DNA of 62,638 nucleotides, filler included, from Pseudobdellovibrionaceae bacterium (GTDB lineage: Bacteria; Bdellovibrionota; Bdellovibrionia; Bdellovibrionales; UBA1609): assembly GCA_030591685.1 (NCBI GenBank). It is 5 parts of 5 records of this genome, joined end to end, with 100 filler letters (N's around TTAATTAATTAA, not from the genome) between each part and the next. Parts side by side here need not be neighbours in the genome. Positions count along the whole stretch, not along the records: positions 29,755 to 51,626 come from JAUVAX010000037.1; 4 more parts are not named here. One strand, given 5' to 3'. The position numbers and the translations under genes were made by a program. The notes under the pieces were generated by a model, which was not told where the DNA came from, searched no databases, and saw nothing but the letters and a program-made list of their open reading frames with translations. Below, in pieces: positions 27,124-40,700 of the stretch (within the stretch, counting starts at the first letter, position 1; every line of letters begins with the position of its first letter).

Positions 27124-27243
27124 CTAAATTCAGGCGCCTGGCGCTTAAAAAAAGAATTATTTACAAAGACATTCTTAAACCTTTATTGAGTCAATCAATC
27201 ATGGGACTACTGGCTCGAATGACTCTTTATTAAAGGATTAACT

Positions 27244-27810
27244 ATGAAAATATTTTTAACGGCCTTGTTGTTTTGTTCAGTAACATCTACAACTGTTCAT
27301 GCAAGTTACACTATTGAAGAAACAGTGTCTTATATTAACAAATTTGGCGACTATATTTATAAATCTAAACCCTATGCGAAGTTTGGTGATTTTTCTTATA
27401 CTGGCATGGACGTTTTTTTTAAATCTATTTCTTATTATAAGAAGGATAACCTGATCGCTGTTAAATATGACGTTGATGATTGGGATGAATATTCTGATAG
27501 TAGTGGTAGGCGCTCGGGCTCTTATACTCAGTACTATAACTTAGCTGGCCTTAAGTCTGTCGAAGGGGCCTTTAAGAGGGTAACTAATTCAACAGGTTAC
27601 AATGGTGTAGTATTTACATGTCCCCTTACGAATTGTGTCTACGGACAAGGGTACGGCGGTTCAATTAGAACTCGTCACTCTGATAAGATGTACACAAATG
27701 TGATAAGTTTTGGCGTCAGAGATCCAATTATTGCAGAAAAACTCAAAAATGCATTTCAACATTTACTTAATATGGCGGTCGCAGAAGCAAACAGTAACGA
27801 CCCTTTTTAA
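27244..27810 (+). CDS. Secreted hypothetical protein, paralogue copy 1
   Basis: Signal peptide ..TVHA; TIEETVSYIN; C-terminal AEKLKNAFQHLL..NDPF. Confidence 0.85.
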   Translation: MKIFLTALLFCSVTSTTVHASYTIEETVSYINKFGDYIYKSKPYAKFGDFSYTGMDVFFKSISYYKKDNLIAVKYDVDDWDEYSDSSGRRSGSYTQYYNLAGLKSVEGAFKRVTNSTGYNGVVFTCPLTNCVYGQGYGGSIRTRHSDKMYTNVISFGVRDPIIAEKLKNAFQHLLNMAVAEANSNDPF

Positions 27811-27884
27811 TTAAAGATCTAGGCACTTCGATACGAAGTGTCAGGTACCGGGTATTCAAATGACTCTTTATTAAAGGATTAACT

Positions 27885-28466
27885 ATGAAAATATTTTTAG
27901 CGGCCTTGTTGTTTTGTTCAGTAACATCTACAACTGTTCATGCAAGTTACACTATTGAAGAAACAGTGTCTTATATTAACAAACTCAGTGACTATATTTA
28001 TAAGTATAAACCCAGTGCGAAGTTTGGAAGCCGTATATATATTGGCGAAGGCGTTAATTTTACAGGGATTCACTATGATAAAAAAAATAATGCAATTGTA
28101 GCTAGCTATGATGTTGGCGCATGGGTAACAAGCGATGTAACTTATACGTTGGATAAGGCCTTCTACACTCAGTTCTATAACTTAGCTGGCCTTCAGTCTG
28201 TCGAAGGGGCCTTTAAGAGGGTAACCAATTCAACAGGTTACAATGGTGTAGTGTTCACCTGTCCCATTAAAAATTGTGTGTATGGAAAAGGCAGTGGCTC
28301 TTATGTAAAATTTAGATCATCAGGATATAACTCCACTGATAAGACATACACAAACAGTTTGAGTTTTGGCGTCAGAGATCCAATTATTGCAGAAAAACTT
28401 AAAAATGCATTTCAACATTTACTTAATATGGCGGTCGCAGAAGCAAAGAGTAACGACCCTTTTTAA
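27885..28466 (+). CDS. Secreted hypothetical protein, paralogue copy 2
   Basis: Near-identical termini to copy 1 with divergent internal blocks. Confidence 0.85.
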   Translation: MKIFLAALLFCSVTSTTVHASYTIEETVSYINKLSDYIYKYKPSAKFGSRIYIGEGVNFTGIHYDKKNNAIVASYDVGAWVTSDVTYTLDKAFYTQFYNLAGLQSVEGAFKRVTNSTGYNGVVFTCPIKNCVYGKGSGSYVKFRSSGYNSTDKTYTNSLSFGVRDPIIAEKLKNAFQHLLNMAVAEAKSNDPF

Positions 28467-28476
28467 TTAAAGATCT

Positions 28477-28504
28477 AGGCACTTCGATACGAAGTGCCTG
28501 GCAC
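28477..28504. repeat. REP-like palindrome
   Basis: AGGCACTTCG-ATA-CGAAGTGCCT followed by GGCAC; related copies at 27821-27848, 27131-27144 and 46637-46648. Confidence 0.6.
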
Positions 28505-28538
28505 TGGACAACCGCTGACTTTGGACAGGCGTTTGGGC

Positions 28539-29654: not shown

Positions 29655-29754
29655 NNNNNNNNNNNNNNNNNNNNNNNNNNNNNNNNNNNNNNNNNNNNTT
29701 AATTAATTAANNNNNNNNNNNNNNNNNNNNNNNNNNNNNNNNNNNNNNNNNNNN
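29655..29754. other. Artificial contig-joining linker
   Basis: 44N-TTAATTAATTAA-44N. Confidence 0.97.
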
Positions 29755-30281
29755 ATACCAATAAAAGTACCCAGTATGCCAAGGCCGGTCAAAAGTGTTG
29801 GAACTGATTCAAAAAAGCTAAATGACCTTTTGTGCTTCCAACCATCGTACTGTACTACTACATCTTCAAAATTGAAAAATTCTCCGGCAGCCACGGCATT
29901 TAGGTATTCATAATATTCGTTGTCGTCTTCGTCGAATCTTTCAATTCGAATAACACACTCTTCAAATTCTTTCCAATAATGCATAAGGAGAAGACTTTTT
30001 TCATTAGCAAATATCTTTTCTAACTTATGGTAATTTTCACTACTAGTTGCCCAATTCCGGCCCGGCGCTAAGCTCGCAATACCAGTTAATGTTGCCTTAA
30101 GTGATCTCTTGAGATCTCTGGACCCTACACTTAAATTCCAAGCAGAGTAAAAAAAGATAACCACAATAGACCATGCAATAATAAACGGTAAGACCCCCTG
30201 CTGCAGTAGGAAAATTCCCTGAATATTATTCCAGAAAGTTAAAAGTCTATCATCAATTATCAACCCCGAAGAAGTATCCAT
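29755..30281 (-). CDS. zorA: Zorya ZorA-like (MotA/TolQ-related) protein, N-terminal part, truncated by contig end
   Basis: N-terminal TM, soluble segment with WKEFEE..A.EFFN, then VPTLLTGLGILGTFIG, typical of the ZorA/MotA second TM. Confidence 0.72.
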
Positions 30282-30315
30282 ATTAGTCCATCCATTAGTT
30301 AATCGATTACTTGTT

Positions 30316-30343
30316 ACATCGGATTAGCACTACAATATGCTTA
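30316..30343 (-). promoter_or_regulatory. Possible sigma28/FliA-type promoter of the zorA-like gene
   Basis: Minus strand TAAG-N16-TCCGATGT, 34 nt upstream of the ATG. Confidence 0.4.
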
Positions 30344-30605
30344 GATATTCTCAAATGTAGATCCAACTTCTCTTGTGTTTTAATAGTTATGTTTCAAATT
30401 GAATTACTTCTTTCTACATACAGAACTAAACTACTGTAAATAGAATTAATTAACTATTTAAACAAACATTTAACGACTGCATTAAACTTGATCTGAACAT
30501 TCATATCTCATATTATTACGTCCTACAGATTAGAAATATTTGTTTAACATTTTTTCTTTTTAATTCCGATAATTATTTGACCCAATCAAAAGGAGAGCTA
30601 CGTGT

Positions 30606-30623
30606 ACAATCTAGACCCCTATA
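30606..30623 (+). repeat. Direct repeat A, copy 1
   Basis: ACAATCTAGACCCCTATA; 17/18 identical to 32118-32135; 12 nt past the Hsp70 stop. Confidence 0.8.
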
Positions 30624-30635
30624 CTCTCGGGGCCA

Positions 30636-31913
30636 TTAACCTAACTCAGCAGCTCTCTCAGCTAAGCCTTGAATTACAGAATGAAAGTTTTTAAATGATT
30701 GTATTTTTTCACTACCAAATCGGCTTAATAGCCCTTTTTTAATAGAAGGAACTTTTGATGTCCCCCCTGTACAACAGATTAAGTCAATGTCCTCATAATT
30801 TACTTGTGCCATTTTTATAACCTCATCTAATGTTGAAAAAATAGTGTCTATTTTTGAACTCGTGTACTCCTCAAACTCTTTATTAGTTATGTTTTCTTTT
30901 ATATGTAAATCTAAATCATTAAATAAAAATTCTCCAGAACCCTTTTCACATATTAATTTTTTACTCAATTCAATTTTTTCAAATAAAGAAAACCCAAGGT
31001 TCTCATCAATCAAGTTAAATAACAGATCTAACCGGTCTTTATCATCACGGGTCATCTTGCATTTTCGTACATCATTTAAAAATGGCATTATACTTGATCT
31101 AGACATCAACGTTATATCAGCTGGAGAGCTTAAATTTATTTTTAATGCTGCTGGCATTGATAAAGTATTATTAGACATGGGGAACTGATATTTTACTTGA
31201 GAACCAAAATACGGAGCCACTCTGTTTGCCATTATACACCCATCAAGCATATCCCCAGCTACAGAAACCCCTCCTAAGGATAAAACATCCTCTTTGCCCC
31301 TGTCCTTAGAGCCAATTTTTATTACTGTAAAGTCAGATGTTCCACCCCCTAAATCCACAACTAATACGAGCTTTTCAGAATCAAGCTCACTCCTGTAACT
31401 ATACGCAGCAGCTAAGGGCTCTGAAAAAAACTCAATATTTTTAAATCCGGCTTCTTTGGCCGCAGTTTCTAACCTATCTTGCGCCAACTGATCGGAGCTG
31501 TCATCTATTGAAAACCTAGCCGGTCGACCTAAGACGACATTCTTTATGTCTCTATCAAAATAAATATCAGCTCTTGATTTAACCTCTTTCAAGAAACAAC
31601 CAATGAGCTCTTCAATTTTATAAATTCTTGAGTTTATCTGAGTCCCTTGAAACGACTTAGATGGTAAGTATTTCTTAATCGATCTAATAAATCGACCTTC
31701 TCCACTTTCTTCAATATAAGTATCAATTGCAGACTGTCCAAATTTTGCACCTCCCCCTCTTGAAAAATACATAAGGCTTCTAAATATTGTTGGGTCAGTA
31801 TTTTTTGAATCCATTATCAAAGGACTTTTTGCTTTTCCGTTCTGAGAATATGCCAATAGTGAGTTAGAGGTTCCAAAATCTATTGCATAAGTAATACTAT
31901 CTTTCATTTTCAT
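30636..31913 (-). CDS. yegD: Hsp70 family protein (YegD-like)
   Basis: AIDFGTSNS, GRFIRSIK, VVLGRPARF, EPLAAA, VVDLGGGTSDF, TGGTS. Start probably 31913 or 31907. Confidence 0.9.
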   Translation of the reverse strand: MKMKDSITYAIDFGTSNSLLAYSQNGKAKSPLIMDSKNTDPTIFRSLMYFSRGGGAKFGQSAIDTYIEESGEGRFIRSIKKYLPSKSFQGTQINSRIYKIEELIGCFLKEVKSRADIYFDRDIKNVVLGRPARFSIDDSSDQLAQDRLETAAKEAGFKNIEFFSEPLAAAYSYRSELDSEKLVLVVDLGGGTSDFTVIKIGSKDRGKEDVLSLGGVSVAGDMLDGCIMANRVAPYFGSQVKYQFPMSNNTLSMPAALKINLSSPADITLMSRSSIMPFLNDVRKCKMTRDDKDRLDLLFNLIDENLGFSLFEKIELSKKLICEKGSGEFLFNDLDLHIKENITNKEFEEYTSSKIDTIFSTLDEVIKMAQVNYEDIDLICCTGGTSKVPSIKKGLLSRFGSEKIQSFKNFHSVIQGLAERAAELG

Positions 31914-32117
31914 ATAATGCCATACCGGATATTTAAAGTAAAAAGATTGTTCACCTTCAGCAAGAACAGAACTTTTTTTGTACAATTAATGATAGACCTA
32001 AATTACCTCCTGGCTCTCCGTTCATACGCAGTGGGTAAACCTCCCCTGCCAGCTATAAATACTCACGTAAGACACTTTAATTCGAAATAGAATTTCTCTA
32101 AGCCAGATATTTTAAAC

Positions 32118-32135
32118 ACAATCTAGCCCCCTATA
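32118..32135 (+). repeat. Direct repeat A, copy 2
   Basis: ACAATCTAGCCCCCTATA. Confidence 0.8.
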
Positions 32136-32274
32136 TAAGCAGTGCCTCCTGTCACCCCATAATAGTTTGGTGACGGAGCAAATCCCCCTTCATTATGATG
32201 TTAACTTTATCTCCAGTAAGAGCATGAAATTACACGTAAAAAATTATTTTAATACTGCGTAGAGAAAACATGAT

Positions 32275-32290
32275 TTAGCGTCTCCGTCCC
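32275..32290 (+). repeat. Direct repeat B, copy 1
   Basis: TTAGCGTCTCCGTCCC; 15/16 identical to 34683-34698; 27 nt past the regulator stop. Confidence 0.8.
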
Positions 32291-32317
32291 TCTATTTACT
32301 CTTTTTCATCATTTAGA

Positions 32318-33046
32318 TTACTTTTTATAATTATTTATTATTGAAAAACTCCATGGTCGCATCCCAATAAATAATGATATATTATTAGCATTTTTATCAT
32401 TAGCATCTAACAAATAAAGCTCCCTAAACTCTTGAGAGACTTTATCTAACTTTTTTTGAATAAGCTTGGAGCTTTCGTTTGAAAGTCGACCGGACAAAAA
32501 AAGTTGACTTTCGCTGTCTTCAACAAAGTAAGAGTTCATAAACTCATCTCGAATTAGATAAAAATATTTTTGACTTAATTTACCCTTAGGGATCCACATT
32601 GTCCCTAAGCCAACCTTTGGTATTAACCTATTTTTGATATGAACATCAACCAAACCCACCGATTCTAACTTTGAAAGAGCCTGCCTTAGCTTAACAGGAG
32701 AGAACTTATACTCTTTGAGTATTTCATCAAATGATTTTCCAAACGCTACCAAATAAAAAACAACTAAATATTCCTCTTTTAAGGACATTAAGTTCTCTTG
32801 GTATTCTGTGAAATATTTTTGAAGGTTCTCCTCTAGAGGCGTTCGTGTTAACTCCTCTAGAGTGATGCCCGCCGCAATACAAACCTGGTCTAATTGTTTT
32901 AAAGAAAGATTTTTACTAGAAAACCATCTCTTTAGAGTCGACTCTGACACCGCCACTGCCTTTGCGAGCTGAGCGTAGGTGATTCCTCTTTTTTTTAAAT
33001 GCGACTTGATTCTATCTACTAAAATTATACACGTTGACATTTTCAT
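32318..33046 (-). CDS. XRE/Cro-type HTH transcriptional regulator
   Basis: LKKRGITYAQLAKAVAVSESTLKRWFS HTH; C-terminal MRPW motif. Confidence 0.88.
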   Translation of the reverse strand: MKMSTCIILVDRIKSHLKKRGITYAQLAKAVAVSESTLKRWFSSKNLSLKQLDQVCIAAGITLEELTRTPLEENLQKYFTEYQENLMSLKEEYLVVFYLVAFGKSFDEILKEYKFSPVKLRQALSKLESVGLVDVHIKNRLIPKVGLGTMWIPKGKLSQKYFYLIRDEFMNSYFVEDSESQLFLSGRLSNESSKLIQKKLDKVSQEFRELYLLDANDKNANNISLFIGMRPWSFSIINNYKK

Positions 33047-33149
33047 TAAGTAACACCGAAAGTATCGAATATCATTACTTTTAAAATTTAAGTATTATCT
33101 GATGCTTGCGCCTGATACAACCCTACCAACTAAATAACTTGGAGGGATT

Positions 33150-34325
33150 ATGAAAACCATACGCTTTAAACTCTTGATGACGGCTATTTTGCTCTTAACA
33201 GTTAACCAATTCTCATTTGCGAGTGACCATATAGACGGCCCCGCAACAATGAGTCATGGAGTCGCAGATATTTCTGATTTGTACGCCTTCCCCACCCCTA
33301 ATCGAAGGGGCAACCTAAGCCTTGTTTTAAATGTATACCCGATGGTCCCTGCAAACGGACATTTCTCTGAAAAAGTAAACTATATCTTTCTATTAAGAAC
33401 CGTCGATATCTCGGGGTCATTTAAGCAAGCTGTCACTTATGTAGAGTCGAAAATCATTTGCTCTTTTAAAACGCCTCATCACAAGAGTTACAGCGTGACT
33501 TGCCGAACAGATAAAGGCCTCTCTGCAAAAGCTAAAATTGGTAAAAAACAACATAAAGGAGACTTTAGATTGTTTGCCGGGATGGTATCTGACCCTTTTT
33601 ATCTCAACGTAGATTGGGTTAAAAACTCAATGGTGAAGGGGAAGTTAACCACCCCCAGCCCTAAGAATATTATGGATAAGCTGAATGTTTTAAGTATTGT
33701 AATAGATATTGAAATTGACAAAGTTTTTGAAGACTACAGAGACGAACTCCTTGCAGTGGCAGCAAAATCTGTCACAAGAGATGGCCCTAACTCCAACTGG
33801 AGACAATTGGACTGGGTGGGACGACCTGAAATAACAAATTTTTCTTTAAGTCCAAACGGAAAAAATGAGCTTAGAGATAAATACAACAGTGAGACACCGT
33901 TTACCAGACCATTCAAATACGAAAATTTGTACTTCAAAAGACTTTACAAAAATATAACACTTCATTATGACCGGCAAGATAATAGAGTCGATTGGGATGA
34001 AGATACAGCGAAACAACTCGTATCCATATTAATGGATGACTACCTACTTTTAGCGCCAAACCTTGCTTGCAATGATGATAGTTATTTTGATATTGAAATG
34101 TCTATCTTAAAAAACAGTAACTATACAACTTGTGGAGGGCGAAAATTAACCGATGACATTGTAGACAAAGTCTTGTCTCTCTACATAACTTCTAATACAA
34201 ATGACCTAGTTGATGGCGTAGATTACCCTTATAGGGAGATCTCAGGTACATTCCCATACTTATCCACCCCGGACACGAGCCTATCAGCTAGAATCAAAGC
34301 ATGGTTCGCTCGAAAATTTAAATAA
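33150..34325 (+). CDS. DUF4331 family secreted protein
   Basis: Signal peptide then SDHIDGP, DISDLYAF, FAGMVSDPF, QLDWVGRPEI, GGRKLTDDIVD, FPYL. Confidence 0.88.
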   Translation: MKTIRFKLLMTAILLLTVNQFSFASDHIDGPATMSHGVADISDLYAFPTPNRRGNLSLVLNVYPMVPANGHFSEKVNYIFLLRTVDISGSFKQAVTYVESKIICSFKTPHHKSYSVTCRTDKGLSAKAKIGKKQHKGDFRLFAGMVSDPFYLNVDWVKNSMVKGKLTTPSPKNIMDKLNVLSIVIDIEIDKVFEDYRDELLAVAAKSVTRDGPNSNWRQLDWVGRPEITNFSLSPNGKNELRDKYNSETPFTRPFKYENLYFKRLYKNITLHYDRQDNRVDWDEDTAKQLVSILMDDYLLLAPNLACNDDSYFDIEMSILKNSNYTTCGGRKLTDDIVDKVLSLYITSNTNDLVDGVDYPYREISGTFPYLSTPDTSLSARIKAWFARKFK

Positions 34326-34682
34326 CAAGGTTTATATTATGACTAAATATTTTTTTATCCTTAATTCCGATTTATATATGTTTTATTACATCTTTAGGGG
34401 TTTTGATGTTTAAGCGGAGAAAGAAGGTCATTGAAGATGGGGAGAGTTAATGCCACCTACTTTAAAGATTACCAAGGCCAGGCCCCCTATGAACTAAAGG
34501 TTATTCAAAATAATTTTAAAAAATCAGTTTCAAGTCCCCGTTCTCTTTTTTTTAACAATAATTGTCGTCATTCAAGTTAATGCCGTCAGCTTAATAAATA
34601 TACTTTTAGGGTATGGGTTCGTCATTTCAAGATTTATGCATAGCTATGTTCACCTCGAAAAAAATAATTTAAAAAAAAGGGC

Positions 34683-34698
34683 TTAGCGTCTGCGTCCC
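34683..34698 (+). repeat. Direct repeat B, copy 2
   Basis: TTAGCGTCTGCGTCCC; 26 nt past the stop of the TIGR02147-like regulator. Confidence 0.8.
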
Positions 34699-34724
34699 AC
34701 TTATTCCTATGTGACTTGGAGACT

Positions 34725-35540
34725 TTAAAAACTGAACAAATCCATGTTTAAGCAAAACAGCTCCTGCTCTTTTGCTGGTGAAACATCAGCCGCCACCTCT
34801 TGAATTAACTTTAACATACGCCCTTTAACCCTCTCTTTAACCTCAGCAGTTGCGGCATAGGAGCCTGTAAAGAATAAATCCACCTCCCTGCGTAACTCCA
34901 TATTTTTTAACCCCTGCATGCGCCAGTTTTGATGATTTCCGTTCACTAATGGTGACTTTCTGGGGATGTGCGTATTGTTCACAGCCGGACTCAACTTACC
35001 ATTTTCAATTTTGCAGATATTGTGATTGAGTAAAAATTCAACTATTGACCTAACAGTCTTTAACGGCACGCCAAAATGATCGGCAAGTTGGTCCTCAGTT
35101 TTTAAACTTTTCAAATTTGTACCTAAGCGAATAGCTCCGTATAGCCAATCACTATAGAAGACGCCCTTGTCCAAGTCGCTAAGCTCTATGTTTTTTAAAC
35201 GGGACTTAACCTCTTTTGATTCTTTTTTCATTTTATTAATTTGATCGGAAAAAACTTTTTTTAATTTAAAATATCCTGCACGATTTCGCTGTACTAGTAG
35301 CAAAAAGTAGTCTCGCTCTATCTCATTAAAACCAAAATACTCTGTCACTTTATAGGCCTGCTCTAGAGTTAAGTCTCTGTCCCCTTTAAATACCTGACTG
35401 ACAATTACTGCGCTAATGTTAAGAAATTGAGCAATTCGACGAGACTGCCCAAACCCCTTTTTAGGCATTCCAGCAATTTTTTGGTTAACGAAGCTCTTAT
35501 AGTCATCAAAATCAAAAATATCCATGCATATATTTTCCAT
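34725..35540 (-). CDS. TIGR02147/DUF4423-like HTH regulator (family expanded in Bdellovibrionota)
   Basis: IFDFDDYKSF, SQVFKGDRDLT, ERDYFLLLVQ, FYSDWLY, HQNWR, FCLNMDLF. Confidence 0.82.
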   Translation of the reverse strand: MENICMDIFDFDDYKSFVNQKIAGMPKKGFGQSRRIAQFLNISAVIVSQVFKGDRDLTLEQAYKVTEYFGFNEIERDYFLLLVQRNRAGYFKLKKVFSDQINKMKKESKEVKSRLKNIELSDLDKGVFYSDWLYGAIRLGTNLKSLKTEDQLADHFGVPLKTVRSIVEFLLNHNICKIENGKLSPAVNNTHIPRKSPLVNGNHQNWRMQGLKNMELRREVDLFFTGSYAATAEVKERVKGRMLKLIQEVAADVSPAKEQELFCLNMDLFSF

Positions 35541-35669
35541 GTATTTTTAGTGAGTTACAATAACAATTAGCAAAAACGCTAATTTTATTACTAAGCTCTA
35601 GCAAACATTATATATCGCGTAGCGTTACCTCCTGGCATTGGTATTAAAACTGCAAAAAAGGAGAATGAA

Positions 35670-36815
35670 GTGAAAAGAATATCTAAAATACGACAAGGTC
35701 TATTAATGGCCTTAACCATTACTACAGTACACTTTACTGCGAATGCCGGGTCAATGGGCGATAGCGGAACTGGTGGTGAGACTATTGAGCTAAAAAGGCC
35801 AACTATAGAGCGTATCGTCAGTGTATTGAAGTCTTCTGAGGCGTCTATCCCTACTCTTCTAGCAACACTAGAACTCTACCTTAAGAATGAAGCTAACGAC
35901 CTCACTAATAAAAATGCTCCCGTCGCGGAAGATTTAATGGCTCAAATATTTAACTCTGACCTTACAATTTTAGATTTATTTAAAACCAAAAAAATGGAAG
36001 TACGAACCGACAAGCCTTGCTACGACATTAATCATGAGCCCACAGAGGGAAGTATCTACTTTCTTAAATCAGGAGATTACTGTGTCAGTCCTTTTTGGAT
36101 GGTTAATAATAAACAATCTGATTTTAATTCTACAAACTATCTTGGGTTAGTTAATGCTGTAGTTGTTCATGAGCTATACCACTTAATTGACATCAATGAA
36201 ACTAGGGCCGACCTCATCAGTAACTCAGTTTATTTTATTTACACATACATTAACGTAAATATAGATGTCTACAGAAAAACCCATGAAGCTGAACGTAAAA
36301 TGTACAAAGGCTTATCTGAAATCATTTCTAACATTGATGACAATCTTGCCCTATGTCTTAGAATAAACGACCTAAATGCTGATGTTAGCTTTTATTTTTA
36401 CCATCCAAATAACTCTGAATGGTTAACTGTGTTACCACCTCAAGTATATATTAGTTTTATAACTGTTATGCATCAGGCATCCGCTATAAACGGATATTGC
36501 GAAAAGAACCCTGTTTTGCCTGGAGAATTAACAGACGTTACTTTTGTCAATGATAGGTTCCAACACTATCATACTGCTAAATCAAAAGAATTAGAAAAAA
36601 CTAATTATTATTTTTTCAAAACTAATTACTTGAAAAAAGAAAAATTAAAATATTCACTTAAAAATATCTATAATAATTTAAAGCCAATTAGTGAGTTCCT
36701 TAAAGATTACAAAGATAACAAAAACCAGGTGCCAGACTCCTATCAATATAATAACTTTTTAGAAAACATAATTTTACCACAGATCAAGCAACCACCTCTG
36801 CAACCTATCCATTAA
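35670..36815 (+). CDS. Secreted protein with HExxH motif (possible zinc metallopeptidase)
   Basis: Signal peptide ..TANA, Gly-rich GSMGDSGTGG start of the mature protein, VVHELYHL. Confidence 0.7.
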   Translation: MKRISKIRQGLLMALTITTVHFTANAGSMGDSGTGGETIELKRPTIERIVSVLKSSEASIPTLLATLELYLKNEANDLTNKNAPVAEDLMAQIFNSDLTILDLFKTKKMEVRTDKPCYDINHEPTEGSIYFLKSGDYCVSPFWMVNNKQSDFNSTNYLGLVNAVVVHELYHLIDINETRADLISNSVYFIYTYINVNIDVYRKTHEAERKMYKGLSEIISNIDDNLALCLRINDLNADVSFYFYHPNNSEWLTVLPPQVYISFITVMHQASAINGYCEKNPVLPGELTDVTFVNDRFQHYHTAKSKELEKTNYYFFKTNYLKKEKLKYSLKNIYNNLKPISEFLKDYKDNKNQVPDSYQYNNFLENIILPQIKQPPLQPIH

Positions 36816-37104
36816 TAATGGTGGGTTGCTATAGATCTTGTAATCAAAAAGTATATGTCACATAAACGCTTTAATATCTGTACGGCAGGGTTTGTGCCCG
36901 CAGGGAGAGTTTAATCACCTACACAGCACCACCGTCGAGCCTTAATCAGCCGCTTAGTTTTAAATGCCCCCCTCCCTGGGGGTTTAAAACAATAGACCCT
37001 TCACCTAGGTCCGTAAGTTTAGGGCCTGGTGTGGGTATACGTAGATTTTAACTCAAAAATCTATTAGCATTTTAACTTGGATTAGTAAAAAATTGTGAGG
37101 TTCT

Positions 37105-37578
37105 ATGTCTACATTAAATGCTCTGCTTAAACACTTACTTAAAGAAAATATTGAGTTTGTCATTGTTGGCGACTTTGCCGCCGTCATATACGGCACAACA
37201 ATTGACACCACTCGTGTTGAGATTTGCACCCCCTTTACAGAGCAAACCATTGAGCATTTAAAAAGTGCTTTTAAAGATATTAACCCTTTTTTTCGTGGCT
37301 CAGAAAATAAGGTTTCATTTTTAGAGCATGCTCACAATGCCGACGGGGAAAAGTCAATTTTTCTAGAGACCGATATGGGCGGGATTGATGTTTTAGCCTC
37401 TGTAGAAGGCGTTGGAGACTATACCTACTTAAAAGAACACTCTATGACGATGCCACTGTTTGGGCAGACCTGTCATGTTATTACCGTAGAGGATCTCATT
37501 AAAGAGAAATCTATAGAGCCTGACGACCATGATATGCAGGTATTAGCTGAGTTAAAAAAAATAGCCGCTCACGATTAA
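37105..37578 (+). CDS. Nucleotidyltransferase-fold protein with a degenerate active site
   Basis: IEFVIVGDFAAVIYG..T.RVEIC, GGIDVL..VEGVGDY, DLIKEK, D..VL.EL match small stand-alone NTases. Confidence 0.75.
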   Translation: MSTLNALLKHLLKENIEFVIVGDFAAVIYGTTIDTTRVEICTPFTEQTIEHLKSAFKDINPFFRGSENKVSFLEHAHNADGEKSIFLETDMGGIDVLASVEGVGDYTYLKEHSMTMPLFGQTCHVITVEDLIKEKSIEPDDHDMQVLAELKKIAAHD

Positions 37579-37798
37579 TCAATAAAATATCTTTTTTACC
37601 CCACCCTAAAGCTCAGGCCACTGAGGGTTAGAGAGGGGCCAAATCGCTCCCTATATGGGCCCATGAGAGCCCTCCTGATTAAAATCCCCCCATTGACGCC
37701 ATTTGTTTTAAAACTTCCTCTTGAATAACACCCAAAAACATTGCTAAAACTATTTGTTTTACCCTGCACTTTACCCATTTTATAGGAGTGACCGTCAA

Positions 37799-40700
37799 AT
37801 GAAGCCCTTAACCCATAAAGGCCAAGCCCTTGAAAAATTACTAAAAAAACGCCTCGTTTTTTTAGACGGCGCTATGGGCACAATGATACAAAAACACAAA
37901 CTTGTAGAAGAGGACTTTAGGGGCTCTCTTTTTAAAAATCACACTAAAGACTTACAGGGCAATAACGACCTACTCACCCTCACCCGCCCTGAGATCAGAA
38001 AAGACATCCATAAGCAGTACCTACTTGCCGGCAGTGACATCATTGAAACTAATACCTTTAGTGGCACCTGTATTGCGCAAGATGATTACGGCTTTAAAGA
38101 TGACGTTGTTTACGAGGTTAATTTTCAATCCGCAAAAATCGCCCTGGATGCCGTTAAAGAGGTTAAAATCTTACACCCTGAGCGTGAGCTTTTTGTCGCA
38201 GGCTCTTTAGGCCCAACAAATAAAACAGCCTCTATGTCACCAGACGTCAACGACCCCAGCTTTAGAGCGGTAACCTTTGATCAACTCGTAGACGCCTACT
38301 ACAAACAAGCCGATGCTTTAGTTAAAGGTGGGGTCGACATATTACTTGTTGAAACCGTTTTTGACTCGCTTAACTGTAAAGCCGCACTCTTTGCCCTTGA
38401 AAAGCTCTTTGACACTTTACCGGAGCGGTTACCAGTAATGATCTCCGTCACTATTACTGATAACTCTGGCCGCACCCTCTCGGGCCAAACTACTGAGGGC
38501 TACTGGAACTCTATTAAACACATCAACCCCCTTAGTGTTGGCATTAACTGTGCTTTAGGGGCAAAAGAAATGCGCCCCTATATCCAAGAGCTTTCAAAAT
38601 TAGCCAACTGCTACATAAGTTGCTACCCCAATGCGGGGTTGCCAAACCCATTAAGTGATACGGGCTATGATGAAAAGCCTGAGGACACCTCTTCATTTTT
38701 ACTCGACTACGCCGAAAGCCAATTTGTAAACATGGTGGGTGGGTGCTGCGGCACCACCCCTGACCACATTAAAGCCATCGTTGATTTACTTAAAAACAAG
38801 CCACCTCGGCTCTTACCAAAAATTGAACCTTACTTAGCACTTAGTGGGCTTGAGCCTTTTAACGTCAAAGGCGAAAAGGCCCCCTTTGTAATGGTCGGAG
38901 AGCGCACTAACGTGATGGGTTCACCTAAGTTTTCGCGGCTTATAAAAGAGGGGCTCTTTGATGAGGCCCTTGTTGTGGCCCGCCAACAAGTTGAAAATGG
39001 TGCTAATGTTATTGATATTAACTTTGATGAGGGGCTCATAGACTCTGAAGAGTCTATGGTTAAGTTTTTAAACCTCATCGGCTCAGAGCCAGACATTTGC
39101 AAAGTCCCCATTATGATTGATAGCTCTAAGTGGTCAGTGATAGAGGCCGGGCTTAAATGCATACAAGGCAAGGGTGTTGTAAACTCTATCAGCCTTAAAG
39201 AGGGTGAAGACGAATTTAAAAGAAAAGCCGAACTCGTAAAACGCTACGGAGCTGCTGTTATAGTTATGGCCTTTGATGAGAAGGGGCAAGCAGCCACTAA
39301 AGACCATAAAGTACAAATCTGCCAGAGGGCTTATAAAATACTCACCACTCAGGTGGGCTTTGCACCAGAAGATATTATTTTTGACCCCAACATACTCACC
39401 GTTGCCACAGGCATTGACGAGCACAACAACTATGCCGTAGATTTTATCGAGGCCGTAAGGGTTATTAAAGCCACCTGCCCTGGGGCACGCACAAGCGGCG
39501 GGGTGAGTAACATTAGTTTTTCATTTAGGGGTAACAACATAGTGCGCGAAGCCATGCACTCGTGTTTTTTATACCACACCATCCGTGCGGGCCTAGACAT
39601 GGGCATTGTTAACGCCGGCATGTTAGAGGTGTATGAAAACATAGAGCCCAATTTAAAACAAAAAGTAGAGGATGTACTATTAAACAAACACCCCCAGGCT
39701 ACAGATAACCTTATTGATTGTGCCGAAGGCTTTAAGGGCCAAAGCAAAGAAAAAACTATAAAAGACGAAAAATGGCGCACTTGGGATGTCAAAAAACGTA
39801 TCGAACATGCACTTGTTAAAGGTCTTGTTGAGCACATTGAAAGCGACACCGAAGAGGCCCGAGCACAGCTAAAACAACCCCTTGATGTTATAGAGGGCCC
39901 ATTGATGGACGGCATGAAAGTTGTCGGCCAACTTTTTGGTGACGGTAAAATGTTTTTACCACAAGTTGTTAAATCGGCCCGAGTCATGAAACGAGCGGTC
40001 GCTTATTTGCAACCCTTTATGGATGCCGAAAAATCACAAACCGCAACAACCATCCGAGGCAAAGTACTTATGGCCACCGTTAAAGGGGATGTGCATGACA
40101 TTGGTAAAAACATTGTGGGCGTCGTTTTAGCTTGTAATAACTATGAAGTGATCGATATGGGCGTTATGGTCCCCAGTGAAGAGATACTTAAAAGGGCCCT
40201 CGAAGAGCGGGTGGATGTGATCGGACTCAGCGGGCTCATTACCCCATCACTGGACGAAATGATCCACATTGCAAAAGAGATGAAGCGACTTAAACTAGAC
40301 ATCCCCCTAATTATAGGTGGTGCCACGACGAGCCGCCTTCATACGGCGGTTAAAATTGCGCCTGAGTATAACGAGGTCATAGATCACGTACTCGACGCCT
40401 CGCTTGTAATAGGGGTTTGTAATGAGATTTTAAACCCTAAAACAAAAGACTCTTATAAAAAATCTCTCAAAGAAAATCAAAAAAAATGGCGCGATGGCCA
40501 TTTAGCCACAAAGAAAAAAAAGCAATACGCACCCCTGATAGAGGCCAATAAAAGTTTTGCTCTAGATTGGTCCAACTACACGCCCATAAAGCCAAAACAG
40601 CTGGGCGTGCATGTTATACCGCACATCTCACTAAGAGAGGTGGTTACGTATATTGACTGGAGCCCATTTTTTTGGACCTGGGACTTAAAGGGCCTTTACC

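Follow-up and report, generated by a model that had tools for sequence, protein, structure and literature searches.

We describe an AT-rich stretch that opens contig C80 (positions 29755 onward) of a Pseudobdellovibrionaceae bacterium, within a window of 62,638 nucleotides in which five contigs of the genome are joined by N-linkers. The stretch is an accessory island littered with the ends of mobile elements. An initial annotation had read it as an integrase-free array of gene cassettes delimited by four short motifs in one orientation; what we find is no new cassette array but an accessory island with elements of known kinds, one family of which shows undescribed behaviour. The island starts at the first base of the contig, after an artificial linker, and because position 29755 is the contig start, its first open reading frame (ORF) is cut and its true left end is unseen. 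The features at the locus are as follows.

29655..29754, no strand: artificial N-linker between contigs; contig C80 begins at 29755
29756..30281, minus strand: N-terminal part of a ZorA-like protein (MotA/ExbB-type, anti-phage), cut by the contig end (PADLOC ZorA1, E=1.3e-12; NCBIfam ZorA under cut-off)
30607..30623, plus strand: 17-bp stub of the left inverted repeat of an IS3-family element, 12 nt past the Hsp70 stop, identical to the left end on C5, C41 and C62 (profile from outside copies, E=0.017)
30636..31913, minus strand: YegD-like Hsp70 family gene (Pfam HSP70; PRK11678 is the best match, under cut-off)
32119..32136, plus strand: 18-bp stub of the IS3-family left inverted repeat, a variant found in L220, G141, G122 and C87 (profile E=0.088)
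32146..32155, minus strand: degenerate HUH-type end motif, one base too long, which abuts the miniature element back to back with 14 nt between them; together the two form a hairpin on folding (z=-3.9)
32170..32290, plus strand: 121-bp non-autonomous miniature element of family F1, whose inverted G(T/G)GACGGAG ends match those of the Y1 elements (85% to the C5 copy, 75% to the C55 copy)
32318..33046, minus strand: XRE/Cro-type helix-turn-helix (HTH) regulator (Pfam HTH_26, HTH_3)
33150..34325, plus strand: DUF4331 protein with a signal-peptide-like N-terminus (Pfam, E=1.6e-26)
34683..34698, minus strand: solo copy of the right end of the miniature element, 15 of 16 bases, in the same orientation and 2.4 kb away (E=2.1 against the family profile)
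34725..35540, minus strand: regulator-like gene of the TIGR02147/DUF4423 family (Pfam and NCBIfam searches), with six paralogues over cut-off in the genome
35670..36815, plus strand: putative secreted protein without a family (no match in Pfam, NCBIfam or PADLOC)

With a GC content of 0.354, the island falls in the lowest 1% of 625 windows of 7 kb across this 2.66-Mb genome (GC 0.40), and metH stands at 0.45, which bears out the annotated difference from that gene. Its modules are divergent gene pairs, the XRE regulator with the DUF4331 protein and the TIGR02147 gene with the secreted protein. With this genome counted, Hsp70 homologues are present in 32 of 109 genomes of the family and DUF4331 homologues in 14 of 301 genomes of the class. 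The island locus was sought in 30 relatives, none of the same genus, and only metH and scattered gene matches were recovered. A scan of viral contigs gave no Hsp70 match, and no ZorB-like partner for the cut ZorA was found at the other contig ends (the one OmpA match lies elsewhere in the genome).

The 18-bp direct repeat with one mismatch that brackets the Hsp70 gene, placed at 30606 and 32118 by the initial annotation, is present, and its two copies are truncated left ends of an IS3-family insertion sequence (IS). The 17-mer of the first stub has seven exact copies in the genome, versus none for the same sequence read backwards: three stand at contig ends and run into orfA, the start of which matches HTH_Tnp_1 in this genome (E=1.8e-9), two form solo ends some 50 bp long, and the stubs in the window make up the remaining two. 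A whole element of 1,298 bp that opens with the 17-mer is contained in a metagenome contig (L220:1-1298), where orfB scores 176.9 bits with NF033516 (cut-off 160), and right ends of the family match at four contig ends of this genome. The terminal inverted repeats of the element are imperfect, and both of its ends begin with C. As target duplications of 3 bp pair two of the three left ends here (and three of five in genome G141, the pairing being made across contigs), and as the empty allele of the insertion on C83 is assembled in C7, the element is active in this genome. In both window stubs, identity to the IS end ceases after 17–18 bp, with weak similarity carrying on to about 27 bp at 30607, so that they are incomplete and not functional ends. 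With the inner part of the repeat gone, the stubs are probably inert scars, left where earlier insertions were later deleted. In G122 and in metagenome contigs, the IS3-family element immediately follows an incomplete copy, 14 bp long, of its own left end. The ends of a second IS3-like element, with its middle unassembled, were seen at the ends of C55, C56, C7, C65 and C87 (L086:1-127, L097:6548-6674).

It is possible, if doubtful, that the Hsp70 gene arrived in a composite of two direct IS copies, which later decayed to the two left-end stubs. The stubs share one orientation and bracket exactly one gene, the element is active here, and in relatives it inserts beside partial copies of its own left end; such a past would be compatible with two unrelated sets of element ends in the island, as the history of one of them. 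Against a composite, the window contains no IS3 right end, transposase remnant or target duplication, and none of 29 Hsp70, 14 DUF4331 and 8 regulator homologue loci has either IS stubs around the gene or a neighbour in common with this island, a weak test given that these loci come from distant relatives (23–59% identical, with at most 1.5 kb of flank each; one Hsp70 locus and one split pair were left out).

The second pair of sites belongs to a different element. As first noted, TTAGCGTCT(C/G)CGTCCC stands at 32275 and 34683, 27 and 26 nt past the stops of the two regulator genes. The site at 32275 is the right end of the 121-bp miniature element, which the inverted partner end at 32170 completes, and a profile that draws on outside copies alone recovers the element at E=3.5e-30. 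The site at 34683 may be either a decayed copy or a locally templated copy of this end. At least four extra inner bases are shared by just two same-contig pairs in the genome, 32290/34698 being one of them, and 34683 may therefore be a copy written locally. Both the 121-bp unit and the 34683 site have ends in common with the Y1 elements of the genome and can be regarded as non-autonomous derivatives of a multicopy, TIRtron-like element, which would mobilise them in trans. Four further outward-facing end pairs, with spacers of 8–34 nt, were found in other genomes, and a metagenome scan for the end of the miniature element gave no matches. Exact or one-mismatch end motifs, oriented as at 32290 and 34698, were also seen at 35348 and 35383 within the TIGR02147 gene and at 38451 within metH; copies of the end motif in coding sequence are at background level genome-wide.

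The initial annotation had united all four sites under one motif. Taken by itself, each pair exceeds chance. The four do fit a loose consensus in one orientation, TCT-N(2-4)-CCC-N(1-4)-TAT, but the genome contains it 209 times, one of them within the DUF4331 gene, and each pair has a longer, specific match to the end of a different mobile element. That the sites form one new class of recombination site for some recombinase is thus scarcely credible. The weaker look-alike reported at about 34465 actually lies at 34475–34490 on the plus strand, where it overlaps a weak terminator-like match, and is at chance level, the looser core with one mismatch matching about 100 places in the genome; it belongs to neither family. 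The annotation had also allowed for terminators or sites bound by regulators, in keeping with three sites just past stop codons and two that follow regulator genes. None of the four gives a terminator-like match, however, Rfam returns no match at the sites, those at 30607 and 34683 fold no better than shuffles, and the motif is missing from eight XRE homologues and from six further DUF4423 loci, of which five are over cut-off and one is below it. A terminator, promoter or non-coding RNA is accordingly unsupported by the terminator, Rfam and folding scans, a regulator-binding site is rejected on the homologous loci, and this explanation as a whole is very improbable.

It is quite probable that the island holds the ends of two unrelated elements, namely IS3-family stubs and TIRtron-like derivatives. 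Of the annotated array, the accessory island stands, whereas the single site class does not, since the sites are ends of two unrelated elements, and neither do the co-oriented cassettes, the modules being divergent. The reported lack of an integrase and of attC sites is upheld: contig C80 has no tyrosine recombinase (three lie elsewhere in the genome), and neither a crude box-pair scan of 29755–37800 nor Rfam detected an attC-like site.

A Y1/HUH or tyrosine recombinase had been suggested to co-occur with the sites, and a Y1/HUH family, which owns two of the four, is indeed present in the genome outside the window. Inverted G(T/G)GACGGAG ends bound eight full-length and three partial Y1/HUH transposase genes, at 64–100% identity, and the six end-to-end units that were measured span 1,056–1,097 bp. 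The 239-aa protein, encoded at L005:1456–2175, matches PF01797 and contains HAH and YIEANP motifs in its sequence; no solved structure matches it by sequence. At least four miniature families, with units of 109–122 bp, carry the same inverted ends. Across a single sample of 251 genomes, read from a table and including kin that are not independent, the 11-bp motif is present in 37–89 copies in six of the seven genomes with the enzyme and in 14 copies in the seventh, and the other 244 genomes have at most 23. This co-occurrence, together with the junction stutters described below, points to the Y1 enzyme as the one that may cut or mobilise these ends.

Within this genome, which crude gene calls put at 88% coding, 40 of 58 exact motifs are intergenic; the corresponding counts for controls are 8 of 63 and 2 of 24. 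Ten of 47 motif sites lie within 40 nt after a stop (8.4% for random positions), whereas the 40 nt around starts hold none of the 47, with 9.7% for random positions. The window sites therefore lie just past stop codons because the HUH end family favours such places genome-wide, not as the borders of modules. HUH-type elements are also located among core genes, between murD and ftsW and between ftsQ and ftsA. A distant Y1 gene (33% identity) was seen on G156:C35 (L061:1229-2336) between 183-bp direct repeats, which consist of nested inverted copies of a different motif.

An insight into how these ends might be processed comes from their junctions. An outer tandem stutter adjoins 7 of 40 intergenic sites, versus 93 of 20,000 random positions, and in a wider scan, where stutter periods are 10–14, GAC is the exact stopping point of six stutters out of ten, which suggests that GAC^GGAG is nicked. 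The 3'-OH left by HUH enzymes is able to prime synthesis or attack a tyrosine link, according to the section of PMC8266576 drawn on here. It can be hypothesized that the 10–13-bp motif, when single-stranded, is bound by the enzyme and nicked between GAC and GGAG, and that the free 3' end then primes on or attacks nearby DNA. The products would be insertions just past stops, stutters of 10–14 bp, back-to-back end pairs (32146/32170 and the four more) and oriented solo ends; all are observed, and a nick of this kind, with chemistry modelled on HUH enzymes, would most likely account for them.

The surroundings of Y1 genes in relatives offer a further view of the family. Across 17 Y1 genes on 16 contigs of six other genomes (405 kb, some flanks having been picked after clusters were seen, and with G030:C56 and three weak matches left out), GGGACGGAG has 82 copies more than 500 bp from a Y1 gene, versus 1–3 for each of six permuted controls. 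Nine of the 16 contigs contributed such sites. This halo is densest close to the gene, with 4.9 sites per 10 kb at 0.5–2 kb and 1.1–1.5 past 5 kb, and 56 sites are oriented toward the Y1 gene and 26 away. The runs of same-orientation sites downstream of these genes were considered as integron-like arrays, a reading rejected because 71 of the 82 sites lie inside ORFs. Core genes that carry oriented end motifs around Y1 genes include ligA, dus, an amidase and NAD synthetase. In ligA of G110, all four sites fall in aligned columns without insertion and some alter a residue (RSIP to RSVP); in a binding protein of G194, two of four align cleanly and two lie in gapped columns. Where orthologues align, the motifs thus seem to arise by base substitution, with the orthologues being too distant for ancestral states. 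Halo sites match the local ends slightly better than foreign ends (7 of 10 loci above expectation, p=0.012, a comparison confounded by shared genome), a weak pointer that they may be templated from the ends of the local element. Dense oriented end motifs in intact core genes were seen on G110:C6 (L148), G194:C15 and C3 (L161–L165), G137:C9 (L147) and in G126 (L166–L168). Around the 11 Y1 matches of the present genome there is no such halo. No published account of halos, stutters or cargo at such ends was found in a search that had most subscription journals outside its reach.

Several findings weigh against reading the window sites simply as the litter of two elements. Two direct stubs of near-equal length around one gene, and two right ends at almost equal distances from the stops of two regulator genes, show more order than chance scatter would. 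The body of IS3 orfB is unassembled in this genome (no rve match), only two of nine stutters in other genomes end exactly after GAC, and an empty allele was found for none of 13 paired HUH-type elements, because the searched sets contain no close relative. Further, seven same-contig direct repeats of at least 50 bp occur in the genome, and two of the seven start 7–8 bp outside an inward-facing end (0.02 expected). On C24 (L091:111-1530), a 213-bp duplication of a gene 3' end encloses a miniature element and a RelE/Gp49-like gene, and on C50 (24999-27302, partly in L071), a 133-bp duplication of a gene 3' end encloses a Y1 element and a secreted protein; in each island, one of the junctions lies 7–8 bp beyond an HUH-type end. 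On C82 (L089:3924-5701), 15 bp after tRNA-Cys, a Y1 left end leads into 90 bp of a transposase gene, then a 448-aa hydrolase, with a right end last. On C62 (L084:5217-8290), three miniature elements in the same orientation alternate with genes, and on C62 and C14 (L088:956-3216) a second miniature family of about 110 bp alternates with single genes, its orientation fixed per cluster. Because of the C24 and C50 junctions, occasional movement of cargo at HUH-type ends is plausible elsewhere in this genome.

It could be speculated from these cases that cassette capture is driven by the Y1 enzyme in trans, which would use oriented motif copies as alternative ends, circle DNA out and re-insert it, with the regulator–DUF4331 module between 32290 and 34698 as one unit and only the motif sites at 32275 and 34683 involved. 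The C24 and C50 duplications, the cargo beside tRNA-Cys, the alternation of elements and genes on C62 and C14, and the extra inner bases shared by 32290 and 34698 all speak for it. Against it, the first 9,000 bases of C80 (C80:1–9000) show no duplication or junction trace, and at least three of the other five duplications bound islands without an HUH-type end. The units of the second miniature family face stops with either end (four versus three), homologous cargo elsewhere lacks the sites (exact HUH motifs in only 2 of 43 homologue loci, 0.6–1 kb from the gene), and the oriented sites of relatives lie mostly inside intact core genes, where they cannot be cassette borders. We consider capture of this kind, and likewise cassette movement in this window, rather improbable. 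It is also unlikely that the HUH family is a self-extending mobilisation system, which would write oriented copies of its 10–13-bp end over nearby sites that look alike, even in essential genes, and then use any of these as an alternative end to lift and re-insert the genes between them. If it were, 34683 would be a written end and the regulator–DUF4331 pair a movable unit, and an HUH enzyme would shuffle genes in an integron-like manner at sites of its own making. We retain the two unrelated sets of element ends as the probable explanation for the island.

Two observations concern other parts of the window. Between the island and metH, a 157-aa ORF (37105-37578) has no match in Pfam, NCBIfam or PADLOC; it may be akin to nucleotidyltransferase-like proteins. 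At 27215-28507, two tandem secreted-looking paralogues of 188 and 193 aa have stretches that are 88–94% identical, and the first is without a Pfam family.

Placing these results beside known systems helps to separate what is familiar from what is not. Integron cassette arrays are characterized by an integrase or other recombinase, attC sites and one repeated class of site; CALINs are clusters of attC sites lacking an integrase. The island resembles such arrays in its accessory cargo (defence-like genes, regulators and secreted proteins), in sites just past stops, and in miniature elements of attC size (about 120 bp) with inverted ends. It differs in having neither integrase nor attC box pairs, in its two families of sites, in its divergent gene pairs, and in the lack of a strong hairpin (z -1.45 and -0.66).

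The element behind the Hsp70 stubs agrees with the IS3 family, of which IS2 is an example (PMC3299598, as far as the sections used here go), in its orfA/orfB DDE transposase, imperfect inverted repeats, target duplications of 3–4 bp and length of about 1.3 kb. It differs in that both ends begin with C, so that the CA-3' consensus is not present; as the left end of IS2 also departs from that consensus (PMC3299598), it is not strictly defining.

The miniature elements share with REP (repetitive extragenic palindromic) sequences, REPINs and their REP-associated tyrosine transposases (RAYTs) the principle that a Y1/HUH enzyme, able to nick single-stranded DNA and to transfer strands, serves repeats that are non-autonomous, and a local expansion of repeats (PMC8266576, same section). 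Here, in contrast, there is no GTAG foot, folding is not above that of shuffles, the enzyme gene is multicopy, and the predicted nick C^G would fall inside the motif, not at a distant C|T as in the part of that literature considered. The enzyme probably belongs to TnpA_Y1 subclass 2.1 (Quentin et al. 2018, 10.1101/279083); members have a C-terminal HTH, which NCBIfam did not match in this 239-aa protein. In work on the association of prochlorosins with TnpA_REP, a group-1 enzyme has been proposed to diversify neighbouring genes, with a later caveat by its authors (10.1101/2020.03.09.984088).

The closest likeness is to TIRtrons and TIRYTs, in which, in the passages of Di Nocera et al. (2013, PMC3733652) relied on here, Y1 genes are accompanied by families of terminal inverted repeats (TIRs) and TIR dimers. 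As in TIRtrons, a Y1/HUH gene lies between terminal inverted motifs, not GTAG hairpins, and single, dimeric and grouped copies are found elsewhere in this genome. The GGGGWSAS consensus, which those passages give as common to some TIRs only, is matched at seven of eight positions by the best variant here, the core R-G-(G/T)-GACGGAG being one position off. Unlike TIRtrons, the gene has 11 copies and behaves like an IS, and the same passages hold no account of stutters, cargo junctions or copies made by substitution in core genes. The HUH part of our analysis bears on an open question, the role of group-1 RAYT/TIRYT enzymes and the spread of their repeats, to which this genome contributes multicopy elements that are young, several satellites of miniature size, a nick site as predicted here and two junctions with cargo. 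In relatives, the end motif replaces coding sequence in genes such as ligA; if confirmed, this would mean that protein sequences are subject to a local force driven by an enzyme, and that recombination sites can be created in a new way.

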